Origin: Minisyncoccota bacterium
GTDB lineage: Bacteria; Patescibacteriota; Minisyncoccia; Phycocordibacterales; JABMNX01
Reading direction: 5' to 3'
Assembly: GCA_965222715.1 (NCBI GenBank)
Contig: OZ244961.1
Span: 462,277 to 526,276 of the forward strand
DNA length: 64,000 nucleotides
The position numbers were made by a program, and so were the translations under genes. The stretch's first letter is position 1. Each line of letters begins with the position of its first letter. Positions 34,035 through 55,428 of this stretch are shown here, piece after piece. A model generated the notes under the pieces. That model had not been told where the DNA came from. It was given only the letters and a program-made list of their open reading frames with translations, and made no database searches.

Positions 34035-34108
34035 GTGCGGATGCCAAGACTCGAACTTGGGACCTCGTCATTATCAGTGACGCGCTCTAACCACCTGAGC
34101 TACACCCG
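34035..34108 (-). tRNA. tRNA-Ile (anticodon GAT)
   Basis: GCGGGTGTAGCTCAGGTGGTTAGAGCGCGTCACTGATAATGACGAGGTCCCAAGTTCGAGTCTTGGCATCCGCA folds as a canonical cloverleaf. CCA is not encoded. Confidence 0.85.
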
Positions 34109-34496
34109 CAAAGTACAGCACATAGTAGCAAAATGAGTCTATAATCTCAACGCCTAGCAGATAACTTAGTGAGTACTTGAAGAATCTTGCAGTATTTGCT
34201 ACCCTCCCTAATGGAATAACCCTAACCTAATTGGAGGCTTTTCGTGTGTCAACGATATAGTGGAAGAAACCATATCCCGCAAGATCAAGGTACGTCGCGT
34301 GAAAACGGAGGTGGCTGCTCCGTTGCCGGCAAGGAAAATAAGTGCCAAGGCAAAAAGAGACTGCCTCGGAAGAGAAAGCGGGACCAAGCATCGAGACCGA
34401 GGAGCGGCTCGATTCTTCAGGCACATTGGGCATGAATACAACAACCGCGCAGATCAGTGATCTGCGCGGTTTCTCGTTACAGCTATCACGGATAGA

Positions 34497-34749: not shown

Positions 34750-36212
<1,463 letters not shown>

Positions 36213-45774: not shown

Positions 45775-45888
45775 TAAAGCTGGCATCGACCTACTTTCCC
45801 CAACATAGAGTATCATCGGCGCAGAAGGGCTTAACTTCCGTGTTCGGAATGAGAACGGGTGTACCCCCTTCGCTTAAATACCAGCTTT
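45775..45888 (-). rRNA. 5S rRNA
   Basis: Plus strand GGCGCAGAAGGGCTTAACTTCCGTGTTCGGAATGAGAACGGGTGTACC is the reverse complement of the conserved 5S core (CCGAACACGGAAGUUAAGCCC...). Ends are approximate. Confidence 0.55.
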
Positions 45889-46048
45889 AAAGGTGCGAAA
45901 AAATGTAAGAATATAAGCAGCGTTCAGATTTCCTAATAAGAGACAAACGACGAATTAGTACTCCTTGGCTAAACACATTACTGTGCGTACACCGAGAGCC
46001 TATCACCTAATCATCTCTTAGGGGTCTATGATTTCTTATCTTGAGGTT

Positions 46049-46081
<33 letters not shown>

Positions 46082-46225
46082 GTTCCCGACATAGCTACTC
46101 GGCAGTGCTCCTGGCGGAACAGCCGATACACCAGAGGTCAGTTCATTCCGGTCCTCTCGTACTAGGAACAAATCCTCTCAAAAATCGACGCCTACAGCAG
46201 ATTAAGACCAACCTGTCTCACGCAT

Positions 46226-46558
46226 GTTCTCATACATTACTGTATGCATTGGACTGTAGCTTTAACTGACACACCATTACAGTGCACAGATAACTGACGT
46301 TCAGTCTCTACGGGCTGAAAATTAATTTTCATTCCCTCGGTATTGTCCTTTGGAAGAGGATTCTACCGATATTAGTCAGCTTGTTCCCGATGTAATATCG
46401 GGACCGCCGTGATTGGATTGCTTAATTCCCAACCCTTTATTAAAGGGTTGGGATCCCGATTGTTACATCGGGACTTATTTCATAGACGAAAAGAATCGAT
46501 TTGTGTCGTTAGAGTGAGCGCAGACTGTGTAGCATTCCATTCAAAGAATCAAATACTA
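46226..46558 (-). other. ORF-less intron-like insertion (~330 nt) in 23S domain V
   Basis: The 23S blocks GAGCTGGGTT.AGA.CGT and CGTGAGACAG are adjacent in E. coli near position 2585. Here they are separated by ~330 nt with no rRNA counterpart. No ORF over 60 aa spans the whole insert. Confidence 0.5.
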
Positions 46559-46694
46559 CACGGTCTGAACCCAGCTCGCGTACCTTTTTAATTGACGAAC
46601 AGTCAAACCCTTGGGACCTTCTCCAGCCCCAGGATAAGGTGAGCCGACATCGAGGTGCCGAACATTGCCGTCGATATGGACTCTTGGGCAATAC

Positions 46695-46728
<34 letters not shown>

Positions 46729-47210
46729 AATCTCCAGTGCCGTCTAAAGGCAACTGTCGGTTCACTATGCTCCGCTTTCGCGCCTGCTCGAGATGTACCT
46801 CTTGCAGTCAAGCCCTCTTTTGCCATTACACTATCGGCACGGTTTCCATTCGCGCCTAGAGGACCTTAATAGACTCCTCCGTTACTCTTTAGGAGGAGAG
46901 CGCCCCACTCAAACTACCCACCAGATACTGTCTCTCGACGTTTTTTCCGTCGAGGTTAGAGAATGCAAAATAAAAGAGTGGTATTTCACTGACGACTCCA
47001 CTACCCCCAAAAGGGTAGCTTCAAAGTCTCCCACCTATCCTACGCAGTTATTTCACACCCCCAATATCAAGCTGTAGTAAAGCTCCCGGGGTCTTTTCGT
47101 CTAGCTGCAGGTAACCGGCATCTTCACCGGTATTGCATTTTCACCGAGCTCTTCCTCGAGACAGTGCCCCAGTCGTTACACCATTCGTGCACGTCTAAAA
47201 TTACTAGACT

Positions 47211-47257
<47 letters not shown>

Positions 47258-48078
47258 CAGGGCTTACACAGTCCAGCATATCTCTAAAAGAAATATACCC
47301 CCCGTGCTTAACCTTCTGGCATTGGTCAGGCGTCACCCCCTATACATCCTCTTACGAGTTCGCAGGGAGCTGTGTTTTTGGTAAACAGTCGCCAGGGCTC
47401 TTTAGCTGCGGCCTACGCAGCCAATAGAGGATTCGATATTGTACATATCGAACACAACACCTATATTGTCTCAATTATTTTCTTCTCAGTTTGAACTCCT
47501 CTATTGGCTGCACAGGCAGACCTTATTCCGAAGTTACGGTCGCTGTTTTGCCGAGTTCCTTGAGGAAGACTCACTCGTTCGCCTTGGTCTACTCGACCTG
47601 ATCACCTGTGTTGGTTTGCGGTACGGTTTTACGAATACTGAAGCTTAGAGGCTTTTCTTGGAAGCGTGCTCCTCTGAATTTGCTTTGGCGAACCGCCACA
47701 TTTCCGCTCTTCTTGGAGTTAGTGTTGCCCGGACTTCCCTAAGCAACCTCCTCAAAGCACGGACGCAAATCCGATAATGCGCTCAGAGTACAACACTCCG
47801 TCCCCTCGTCGCATATTCGTAAAGTCATGGAATATTGACCATGTGTCCATCGTCTCCCCCCTTCGGGATCGACTTAGGCCCGACTAACCCTTCGCTGATC
47901 TACATCGCGAAGGAAACCTTGATCTTTCGGCGGGCAGGAATCTCACCTGCCTTGCGGTTACTCGTGCCAACATTCTCACTTCCATACGCTCCACCATGGG
48001 TTATCCCTTTGGCTTCATCGCAGAATGGAACGCTCTCCTACCGCTTATGAACTTCATTGAGGACCTAAACGAGCGTTT

Positions 48079-48155
48079 AGGAAAATCTTGGTTGCCGCCG
48101 GGGAGATTCGAACTCCCGACCTCGTCCTCACGAAAGACGCGCTCTACCACTGAGC
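48079..48155 (-). tRNA. tRNA-like element (Thr-like, anticodon CGT) embedded in the 23S intervening sequence; imperfect acceptor stem
   Basis: GCCGTTCGTAGCTCAGTGGTAGAGCGCGTCTTTCGTGAGGACGAGGTCGGGAGTTCGAATCTCCCCGGCGGCAACCA. Canonical D-arm, anticodon arm (loop TTCGTGA) and T-arm. The acceptor has a mismatch and an extra nt. Confidence 0.4.
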
Positions 48156-48185
48156 TACGAACGGCATTTTATCCAAGATTGTGTT

Positions 48186-48261
48186 TGGCTGAGGTGGCAG
48201 GGGTCGAACCTGCAACCTCTCGCGTTTTAAGCGAGTGCTCTACCATCTGAGCTTCACCCCA
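48186..48261 (-). tRNA. tRNA-like element (Phe-like, anticodon AAA) embedded in the 23S intervening sequence
   Basis: TGGGGTGAAGCTCAGATGGTAGAGCACTCGCTTAAAACGCGAGAGGTTGCAGGTTCGACCCCTGCCACCTCAGCCA. Full cloverleaf with encoded CCA. Anticodon loop TTAAAAC gives A34-A35-A36, which is unusual. Confidence 0.4.
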
Positions 48262-49096
48262 TTCACCAAACAACAAAAAGAACTATGGAAGGCTTGATAC
48301 AATGACCCAAACCAACCACACGATAATCAAGGAAGTTCCCACTCCCCCAATGATAGTATTTCGGTTTAGTGCCATAGCACACCTCCTATTTTCCTCAATG
48401 AAATTCACAAGCCCCCAGTTTCGGTATCATACTTAGCCCCGATCATTTGCGGCGCGACATCTCTGAATGAGTGAGCTGTTACGCTATCTTTAAAGGATGG
48501 CTGCCTCTAAGCCAACCTCCTCATTGTCTGAGAAATCTCACCTCCTTAAGTGCACTGAGTATGAATTTTGGGACCTTAACTTGGGATCTGGGCTGTTTCC
48601 CTTTTGACCAGTGGAGCTTAGCCCCCACAGTCTAACTGCCGTACTGTAACTGTTGGTATTCGGAGTTTGATAGGAGTGACGAGGTTTCCCCCTATTCACA
48701 CCTTCCAGTGCTCTACCCCCAACAGGATCATACGACGCTAACCCTAAAGCTATTTCGGAGAGAACCAGCTATTACTCGGTTCGATTAGCTTTTCACTGCG
48801 TACCACAGGTCATCCGAATGCGTTGAACGACATTTCGGTTCGGGCCTCCATCTGTGTTTCCACAAACTTCACCCTGCCCATGGTAAGCTCACCGAGCTTC
48901 GGGTCGTATGCACACTACACTTATTTCGCGCTATTCACACTCGGTTTCCCTGTGACTCCACCCGAAAAGGGCTTAGCCTGCAATATACATACACTCGTTG
49001 GCTCATTCTTCAATAGGCACGCGGTCATGGCGCAAGCGCCACTCCCACTGCTTGTAAGCGTGTAGTTTCAGGTCTATTTCACTGTCCTCACCGGAC

Positions 49097-49135
<39 letters not shown>

Positions 49136-49861
49136 ATCTGAAAAAGTATTTAGCCTTACCAGTTAGTGCTGGCAGATTCACTCAAGCTATTCGTGTCTTG
49201 AGCTACTCAAGAACAACAACAAAAGAGTTGTAGAAGTTTTCACATACGGGACTGTTACCCTCTGGGGTGCTTCTTCCCAAAAGCTTCTGTTAACTTTACA
49301 ATTTGTAACTCTTCTTGTTTTAAAAACAAACGTTGTTGCCTTACAACCCCCGATACCACCTCCGTCACCTGACCATACAGATGGCAGAGGTGAAATCAGG
49401 TTTGGGCTACTCCCCGTTCGCTCGCCGCTACTACGGGAATTCCTATTGGTCTCTTTTCCTCCAGGTACTGAGATGTTTCACTTCCCTGGGTGCGCTCCTT
49501 TGCGTCAAGCACAAAGGTAACTACCTAACGTAGTTGGGTTTCCCCATTCGGAAATCTCCGGGTCAAAGGTTGCTAGTCACCTCGCCGAAGCTTATCGCAG
49601 ACATGCCACGCCCTTCATCGCCTTTTTCAGTCTAGGCATCCACCACACGCTCTTCAGATCTCCTATTAGGAAATCTAAAAACCGCTTATAAACTTACATT
49701 TTGTTTATGTCCCATCTTTCTTTTTGTTTAAAGAAAAAGATGGGACTTACCTGCATGAACCTCCTCTCTCCGAAAGTGTTGAAAAGAGGTTCAAGCTATT
49801 ATGACGTTGTCAAAGAGTCGCGTAATTCCCTATGAGCTTTTATATATCACTAGTCATCAAA

Positions 49862-55351: not shown

Positions 55352-55428
55352 TGGTCGGAATGAGTGGATTTAAACCACTGACCTCTGCCTCCCGAGGGCA
55401 GCGCTCTATCAGGCTGAGCTACACTCCG
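55352..55428 (-). tRNA. tRNA-Pro (anticodon CGG), CCA encoded
   Basis: CGGAGTGTAGCTCAGCCTGATAGAGCGCTGCCCTCGGGAGGCAGAGGTCAGTGGTTTAAATCCACTCATTCCGACCA. Clean cloverleaf. Downstream hairpin terminator on the minus strand at 55307-55330. Confidence 0.8.

Follow-up and report, generated by a model that had tools for sequence, protein, structure and literature searches.

What are two tRNA-shaped sequences doing inside a gene for 23S rRNA? The question is raised by an insert of ~370 nt located within the single 23S rRNA gene of the window analysed here (the whole 64,000-nt stretch of contig OZ244961.1 presented above), at the tip of helix 45 (H45). Taken together, the alignments, folds and comparisons with related genomes make it an even call that the insert is a lineage-specific form of the classical H45 intervening sequence (IVS): an RNase III-type internal spacer that would split the 23S rRNA and release tRNA-derived RNAs. 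The H45 IVS itself is known; what appears to be new here is a class of tRNA-shaped cargo and a conserved frame around it in Patescibacteria.

The position of the insert is given by the Rfam model of large-subunit (LSU) rRNA, RF02541, which matches the 23S rRNA gene (45934-49666, minus strand) over model positions 1-2925 with 2374 bits; the gene is 3733 nt long, as compared to the 2925 positions of the model. Local alignment interrupts this match once: a block in a hairpin loop, between model positions 1218 and 1219, is left unaligned, and the model aligns continuously on each side of it. The hairpin that carries the block comprises approximately positions 1203-1226, directly upstream of the universal GGUAGGAGAGCGU, and we take it to be helix 45 by standard 23S numbering. 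Helix 45 is the classical site of IVSs (PMC4990558, PMC2801512). As compared to the 23S rRNA gene of the relative L001, which is 90% identical, the extra DNA comprises 48411-48281 plus 48256-48046; the whole IVS including its closing stem, delimited by the unaligned block and by what is missing from L001, extends over 48043-48412 on the minus strand. The initial annotation of this DNA had placed an insert at 48055-48410, in the helix-45 region. The interval is right within ~10 nt by both comparisons, the location in the loop of the model hairpin is borne out by the full-length LSU match, and the covariance model leaves the insert as an unaligned block instead of running through it as native sequence. 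An assembly chimera, considered at the same time, is countered by continuous 23S flanks and by the same architecture in independent assemblies.

The insert is strongly structured, with a minimum free energy (MFE) fold of -157.3 kcal/mol (z = -7.0 as compared to shuffles). In this fold, the 5' strand of an H45 extension stem, GCUUGUGAAUUUCAUUGAGGA (48392-48412, minus), pairs with the 3' strand, UCCUCAAUGAAGUUCAUAAGC (48043-48063, minus), to form a closing stem of 21 contiguous, perfect and bulge-free base pairs, a duplex of the type that RNase III cleaves in classical IVSs. Comparative data support the same stem. When the cargo is removed and 15 frames are aligned gap-free, the 21 pairs are formed in 315 of 315 cells and 13 of the 21 show compensatory change, with both sides altered; neither shuffles nor slid registers approach the observed value. 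Beyond its pairing, the stem sequence itself is kept in records of Kaiserbacteria, Nomurabacteria, Parcubacteria and Saccharibacteria. The insert shares three properties with H45 IVSs: the apical loop of H45 is replaced in an otherwise intact 23S rRNA, the ends form a long duplex (21 bp), and presence is sporadic among relatives (L001, L011, the L002 type and the window). Intron identity was rejected: the insert has no match to the group I or group II models (RF00028, RF00029) even at E <= 1, no other covariance-model signal for an intron, and a 21-bp stem that offers no bulge for a bulge-helix-bulge site. Counts of promoter and terminator signals inside the insert are not above those of shuffles.

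Within this frame, two tandem tRNA-shaped modules lie on the rRNA strand, and both are called by ARAGORN and by the Rfam tRNA model RF00005 (threshold 29 bits; E-values for the whole 64-kb window). Module 1 (48186-48261, minus) is called tRNA-Phe(aaa) and scores 61.9 bits at 48189-48261 (E = 5e-11). Module 2 (48089-48166, minus; 78 nt) is called tRNA-Thr(cgt) and scores 50.0 bits at 48094-48164 (E = 1e-7). In a search of the insert against Rfam these two tRNAs alone exceed the threshold, with sub-threshold YrlA and long non-coding RNA noise besides. Both elements had been recognized beforehand, and the tRNA predictors now place both above threshold. The earlier coordinates of the AAA element are exact; those of the Thr-like element, 48079-48155, are ~10 nt off. 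Also described then, and seen again by ARAGORN or in the sequence, were A34 in the AAA anticodon, the encoded CCA and a defective Thr-like acceptor.

Both modules have a cloverleaf that exceeds the curated model threshold, a 7-nt anticodon loop, U33, a purine at 37, G18 G19 and a T-loop UUCGA. Module 1 forms a complete cloverleaf (U1:A72, G2:C71, G3:U70, and G73 followed by CCA). Its anticodon loop, UU-AAA-AC, places an adenosine at position 34, which in bacteria is, to our knowledge, essentially confined to tRNA-Arg-ACG, and it carries A8 rather than the near-universal U8. Within the set compared, module 1 is closest (75%) to the tRNA-Ala(UGC) of the L044 insert, and the T stem is identical in the two, as are acceptor pairs 2-4 and 6-7. 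Its body appears to be of Ala type, with the anticodon altered. By general rules of tRNA identity, not ones established for the candidate phyla radiation (CPR), module 1 mixes Phe-type and Ala-type features, with the anticodon AAA alongside G3:U70 and G73. An exotic possibility is that such an acceptor, combined with the AAA anticodon, would put alanine at UUU codons.

In module 2, the D, anticodon (UU-CGU-GA) and T arms are intact, and A73 is followed by CCA. Its seven acceptor pairs require two extra nucleotides after the 5' strand and one before the 3' strand, so that the connector is 4 nt long and a bulge of 1 nt separates the T stem from the acceptor stem. If the reading starts one base later (GCCG...), the module resembles a tRNA-Thr with a 1-nt insertion, and CGU together with the GCCG... 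acceptor is Thr-like by the same general rules of identity. Neither module combines U8, a 2-nt connector and a T stem stacked on a 7-bp acceptor. These lesions, A8 and the AAA anticodon in module 1 and the extra nucleotides at the acceptor junction in module 2, make standard decoding by the window modules doubtful. The chance that one or both of them work as decoders is less than even, though by no means negligible.

The modules are part of an ordered cargo: a 30-codon hydrophobic open reading frame (ORF) led by a Shine-Dalgarno (SD) sequence, a GUUCUUU motif, the two clamped tRNA-shaped modules, and a small hairpin. The clamp is a helix between leader and trailer. For module 1, the leader UUGUUGUUUGG (48266-48276, minus) pairs with the trailer CCAAACACAA at 48179-48188 in a duplex of -11.8 kcal/mol, which 4% of shuffled trailers equal. 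For module 2, the leader AAUCUUGG (48173-48180, minus) pairs perfectly with the trailer CCAAGAUU at 48084-48091; none of 300 shuffled trailers equals this duplex of -9.9 kcal/mol. The encoded CCA lies within the leader-trailer helix in both. The small hairpin CCUAAACGCUCGUUUAGG (48064-48081, minus), which precedes the 3' stem strand, is seen in the fold, and a hairpin is also found here in the other members read.

Is this arrangement peculiar to one genome? A metagenome scan with the stem sequence returned L012, in which the frame recurs with a tRNA-Trp(CCA) in the corresponding slot. A second, generic scan, of species-representative genomes, required a T-loop 21-81 nt ahead of the 23S flank and returned at least 119 loci. 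Together, the two collection scans yield at least 12 further distinct inserts with tRNA-shaped cargo, and hence at least 13 with the window; among the matches listed, all members with a named taxon are Patescibacteria. The same stem and architecture recur in independent assemblies of different projects. Eight loci scanned with Rfam lie inside the LSU match, with tRNA scores of 47-74 bits except for L129, whose module is detected by ARAGORN only. A scan of viral contigs for the 3' frame gave no match. In L026, L079 and L098, H45 is short and carries no cargo. Three further matches were rejected: L043 and L124 have no 23S flank upstream of the match, and L099 (Bartonella) has no 23S 5' flank upstream and ordinary tRNA-Tyr and tRNA-Gly genes beside a chance match.

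The cargo of these inserts is variable in body and, above all, in the anticodon arm. Trp-CCA is found in L012, in L033 (an unclassified metagenome-assembled genome, MAG, whose insert is identical to that of L012) and in L107 (Paceibacterota). L044 (Parcubacteria) carries two modules, one with a 39-nt insertion and one Ala-UGC, and L025 (Nomurabacteria) has the anticodon GUA, a short variable arm, a 1:72 mismatch and no CCA. Anticodon loops of 6 nt occur in L046 (a Paceibacterota chromosome) and, with an 8-bp acceptor, in L109 (Kaiserbacteria); L116 (an unclassified MAG) has C33 in the anticodon loop. L129 (Kaiserbacteria) combines a self-complementary anticodon arm with an 8-bp acceptor. The arm is greatly expanded in L093 (Kaiserbacteria) and extended in L019 (Saccharibacteria). 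Class II bodies are present in L039 (Saccharibacteria), with an inserted anticodon arm, and in L038 (Patescibacteria, a complete genome), with a tetraloop replacing the anticodon loop. In many members, then, the anticodon arm is replaced by other hairpins, some of which resemble conserved 16S rRNA loops.

What is constant is the upper half of the tRNA and its clamp. The acceptor stem is fully paired (7/7) in 12 of 15 modules, the T arm is intact in all and a D arm is present in nearly all. A leader-trailer helix is formed in 15 of 15, with helix sequences that are unrelated; the mean is -10.3 kcal/mol versus -4.8 for mismatched partners, and 13 of the 15 helices are stronger than those formed by at least 96% of shuffled trailers. 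Six modules have a canonical anticodon arm (both in the window, L012, L107, the second L044 module and L025). The other nine are non-canonical there: the loop is of 6 nt or has C33, a tetraloop caps a 7-bp stem, or hairpins of 39 to ~90 nt are inserted, lengths far too short for group I introns. In our view it is the tRNA shape that is under selection, whether for processing, stability or the binding of proteins, and not the capacity to decode: under neutral decay the upper half of the tRNA would have been lost as well, and a decoder would have kept its anticodon loop. The cargo looks to have been seeded repeatedly from real tRNAs, since both type I bodies and class II, Leu/Ser-like bodies are present. 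Of the meanings proposed initially, tRNA-like cargo inside an rRNA IVS is supported by 13 distinct inserts that share the frame; a decayed mobile insertion fits poorly with acceptor, T and nearly all D arms kept family-wide.

Several ordinary tRNAs of these genomes show the same flanks. The tRNA-Pro(CGG) gene of the window (55352-55428, minus), L001:9288-9365 and L002:4058-4132 each have an upstream leader that can pair with the 3' trailer, the encoded CCA included, in duplexes of -9 to -12 kcal/mol. With this shared flank design, the IVS modules look like resident tRNA transcription units; pre-tRNAs of this lineage may in general have an unusual architecture or route of processing.

Related genomes in which synteny is kept (L10, L7/L12, MS channel, 23S, 5S, a 253-aa protein, RodA) show how H45 itself varies. 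L001 has a short H45 hairpin. L011, from a 745-kb circular contig, has an extended hairpin alone, with the same base stem and no cargo, and L002, L003 and L005, as well as L013 and L015, have the same stem around ~525 nt of non-tRNA cargo, in which no Rfam family matches and which may be an undescribed structured RNA. The initial annotation had suggested comparing related 23S rRNA genes for presence or absence of the insert; short, extended and otherwise loaded forms are all found among them. Contigs of L008, L009 and L135-L137 stop at the rRNA and fall outside this H45 comparison.

If the insert is a classical-type spacer, the sequence of events would likely involve: transcription of the whole insert within the pre-23S rRNA; cleavage of the 21-bp duplex by RNase III, as in classical IVSs, leaving a 23S rRNA in two pieces of ~1.25 kb and ~2.1 kb held together non-covalently; and trimming of the excised ~330-nt RNA, by RNase P at the 5' end and to the encoded CCA at the 3' end. 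The outcome would be tRNA-sized RNAs at rRNA-level expression. Both modules would derive from real tRNAs, module 1 from one like Ala(UGC) and module 2 from one like Thr(CGU). That RNase III excises the insert, that the 23S rRNA is fragmented and that ~76-nt RNAs are set free is what we infer from this architecture.

Several observations weigh against such a spacer with non-decoding cargo. Some members carry flawless tRNAs (Trp-CCA in L107; Ala-UGC in L044, with G3:U70, A73 and CCA), so that decoding may be the selected function in some genomes, possibly including that of the window. The AAA anticodon is not absurd where UUU makes up 77% of Phe codons (UUU 646 vs 193 in the window). Finally, the 21-bp stem is present without cargo in L011 and might form a stable expansion segment instead of a site of cleavage.

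The most probable alternative, though we regard it as unlikely, is that the insert houses two ordinary working tRNA genes, a tRNA-Thr-CGU and a UUU-reading tRNA, in an H45 spacer that serves as an extra operon slot. Such a slot would parallel the tRNAs of 16S-23S and 23S-5S spacers, in a genome with very few promoters. Spacer tRNAs between 23S and 5S occur in the relatives L001, L002 and L025; L002 and L004 have Ala-UGC and Lys-UUU there, and L001 a tRNA-Pro along with an aberrant Ala-like element. Relatives keep two tRNAs in this spacer, and the 48-nt 23S-5S spacer of the window is empty of tRNAs. Consistent with this alternative, both modules score well above the Rfam threshold and have canonical anticodon loops, G18 G19, UUCGA and CCA; canonical Trp-CCA and Ala-UGC occupy the IVS slot elsewhere; the flanking helices match those of ordinary tRNAs; and UUU is the main Phe codon, 646 versus 193. 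Opposed to it are the details of the modules themselves. Module 1 has A8, an anticodon with A34 that is generally unusual in bacteria, and a G3:U70 (Ala-type) and G73 unfit for a tRNA-Phe; module 2 closes its acceptor stem only with a connector of 4 nt and, between T and acceptor stems, a bulge; and nine of the 15 family modules cannot decode.

The L001 spacer element mentioned here (L001:9106-9263; Rfam 36.9 bits) is Ala-type (G3:U70, A73, CCA), with a large insertion and no recognisable anticodon arm. Its insertion holds GTTCTTTTGG, a motif that also precedes the leaders of IVS tRNAs.

It is rather improbable that the tRNA-shaped tip of H45 is a selected, lineage-wide functional module of Paceibacteria LSU rRNA and not passive cargo. 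Such a module might remain part of the mature ribosome, forming a tRNA-like expansion segment, or could act as RNase P punctuation that splits the 23S rRNA; each can be weighed in a specific form.

In the former, the insert would be retained in the mature 50S subunit as an expansion segment, with tRNA-shaped domains on the solvent side that might recruit tRNA-binding proteins or stabilise the particle. The stem sequence, besides its pairing, is conserved across the four named groups, L011 has the stem without cargo, the cargo is built of nested closed helices as expansion segments are, and selection has kept the tRNA body and not the anticodon, all of which would suit retention. Against this, a bulge-free duplex of at least 21 bp is a textbook RNase III substrate at the classical site of excision (PMC4990558, PMC11270868), the cargo varies from ~60 to ~520 nt among related genomes in length and content, unlike a functional part of the ribosome, and an SD-led ORF would be odd in a ribosome-resident RNA. 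Retention is quite unlikely.

The latter form, in which RNase P and a 3' endonuclease would cut at the module ends and separate the 23S halves without RNase III, much as mitochondrial polycistrons are processed, is less probable still. Consistent with such punctuation, the conserved parts of the modules are those recognized by bacterial RNase P, the acceptor-T minihelix and the 3' CCA, with the anticodon arm left free, and most IVS cargos read contain at least one module. However, the frame is conserved without modules in the L002-type IVS and as a stem alone in L011. The leader-trailer helices would also bury both the CCA and the cleavage site, and RNase P would thus be hindered until they are opened, which counts against punctuation. 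This meaning, too, had been proposed initially; it is not needed, the stem alone being a plausible RNase III site.

An assembly artefact or a dead insertion decaying neutrally, to which the lesions of both modules and a mini-ORF without homologues might point, is essentially excluded by recurrence of the frame in 13 distinct inserts of unrelated assemblies and by covariation of the stem and leader-trailer helices, and it is further opposed by seamless 23S flanks and by acceptor and T arms that are intact family-wide, unlike under neutral decay.

How does the spacer that we favour, with tRNA-derived RNAs released from it, compare to known systems? It shares with the classical H45 IVSs of Salmonella, Yersinia, Campylobacter, Leptospira and Coxiella the site, the long complementary stem and the sporadic presence. 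Classical IVSs likewise may carry an ORF and occur in a single-rRNA-operon, reduced-genome organism (PMC4990558, PMC2801512). Unlike in those, the cargo of the window consists of tRNA-shaped genes and a mini-ORF, with no ORF for the S23p four-helix bundle; the stem sequence in Patescibacteria is conserved across a class-level lineage; and excision is here a putative step. Many short, non-intron, ORF-less and uncharacterised insertions have been described in CPR 23S rRNA genes at the sites 23IS2 and 23IS4 (Tsurumaki et al. 2024, PMC11270868), and it was suggested there that these are RNase III-type IVSs. The present insert lies in the same bacterial group and in the same kind of site, and we infer that 23IS4 is the H45 site. 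The word 'tRNA' occurs nowhere in the main text of that paper.

Other parallels concern the cargo. Co-transcription, release by tRNA-end enzymes and leader-trailer flanks are alike in the tRNAs of rRNA operon spacers (16S-tRNAIle/Ala-23S; 23S-tRNA-5S in L001, L002 and L025). In contrast to those, the 'spacer' of the window lies inside the 23S coding sequence, and release of a tRNA would necessarily break the rRNA. In the punctuated or split rRNAs of organelles (animal mitochondria; oyster mitochondrial LSU, PMC2996981), tRNA-shaped elements also separate rRNA pieces of one transcript. These systems differ in that they are not free bacterial genomes and that their tRNAs are working decoders and the only processing signals; the window insert has a long RNase III-type duplex as well. 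In YrlA, the tRNA-like domain of tmRNA and viral 3' tRNA-like structures, a long stem between distant 5' and 3' sequences bears a tRNA-like body, and in these RNAs as in the IVS family the acceptor, T and D parts are kept and the anticodon arm is altered. Identity with the bacterial Y RNA YrlA was rejected: the RF02553 match, which covers parts of both modules across their junction, reaches 21.1 bits where 69 are required (E = 0.04), and neither a Ro-binding site nor a tag reading frame was found in the insert.

In line with the statement of the initial annotation that no bacterial example was known, searches of the full-text literature, which mostly excludes subscription journals, found no account of a bacterial 23S IVS that contains tRNA genes. 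A survey from 2026 of introns in the tRNAs of Patescibacteria (PMC13011429) is, in its available part, silent on tRNAs located in genes for rRNA. Bacterial rRNA IVSs have so far been treated as selfish or neutral spacers with at most one odd ORF. Here, the H45 site would serve an ultra-small genome, within its only 23S rRNA gene, as a slot from which tRNA-shaped RNAs and perhaps also a membrane mini-protein are expressed. Should the RNAs be released, this would be a bacterial counterpart of organelle-style, tRNA-punctuated fragmented rRNA, and counts of CPR tRNA and tRNA-like genes would depend on searching inside rRNA genes; if they are retained, CPR ribosomes would bear a tRNA-like appendage. 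In either case, the inserts define a new structured-RNA family, a conserved 21-bp frame with modular cargo, that pipelines for rRNA and tRNA annotation will mislabel.

Three further elements of the cargo are of interest. The first is the mini-ORF (48283-48375, minus; 30 aa, MALNRNTIIGGVGTSLIIVWLVWVIVSSLP), which has a grand average of hydropathy (GRAVY) of 1.42 and a status that is uncertain. An AGGAGG at 48382-48387 lies 6 nt before its ATG; the MFE fold places the mini-ORF in a long hairpin, in which the SD and the end of the ORF pair with each other. A search with the 41-aa, GTG-start version found no homologues, and Pfam contains no family above threshold, the sole sub-threshold match being a PspC transmembrane region. 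An S23p (23S_rRNA_IVP) ORF is absent from the insert, in which the 30-aa ORF is the only SD-led hydrophobic one. An analogous SD-led hydrophobic ORF of 23 aa (MRRVDNIVMLVQIVALIGFVFNL, GRAVY 1.47) is found in the L129 insert. Both ORFs lie in the 5' part of the IVS in Kaiserbacteria-like genomes, have no mutual sequence similarity and no database homologues, and may encode small membrane peptides, resemble type I toxin genes or be there by chance; that of the window is a possible small membrane-peptide gene.

The second is the motif GUUCUUUU (48276-48283, minus), which precedes the leader of module 1 and has the same position in most family members. The form GUUCUUU(U/G) stands before the first tRNA leader in the window, L129, L093, L038, L046, L025, L044, L012 and L019, and GTTCTTT is not enriched across the window. 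The motif is a candidate site of cleavage or binding.

The third is a set of conserved rRNA snippets inside the cargos, which in L019 and L093 lie within the expanded anticodon arm. The L107 cargo contains GGGATTAGATACCCC, the 16S 790 loop (blastn-short E = 0.002), that of L019 contains CAGCAGCCGCGGTAAT, the 530 loop, and that of L093 contains the 530-loop-like GTGCCAGCACGGCAATAC; TCCGAATGGGGAAACCC and CTGCGATAAGC in L116 are from the 23S 5' domain. A motif UAGUAa-stem-GAUCAGcaUG-stem'-GAAU, which resembles 16S rRNA helix 43, is common to five cargos other than that of the window (L002:75-634, L012, L107, L109 and L116); its stems appear by eye to covary.

The genomic setting is that of a CPR bacterium. 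Homologues of the protein adjoining the 5S rRNA are labelled Candidatus Kaiserbacteria, Paceibacterota or Pacebacteria, and the host is a Kaiserbacteria/Paceibacteria-like member of the CPR (Patescibacteria) with a tiny genome and unlinked rRNA genes. By Rfam, the 5S rRNA lies at 45778-45885 and the 16S rRNA at 34751-36210, both on the minus strand, with a tRNA-Ile(GAU) at 34035-34109 (minus). The order is unusual: on their common strand, the 23S-5S pair precedes 16S-tRNAIle by 9.5 kb, and protein genes for the cell envelope and glycosyltransferases lie between 5S and 16S. As compared to L001, the 23S rRNA gene of the window has a second insertion, of 46 nt, at 46432-46477. A further ~450 nt beyond the Rfam LSU model, elsewhere in the 23S, are common to the window and L001, and 23S rRNA genes of relatives contain LAGLIDADG ORFs and group I introns.

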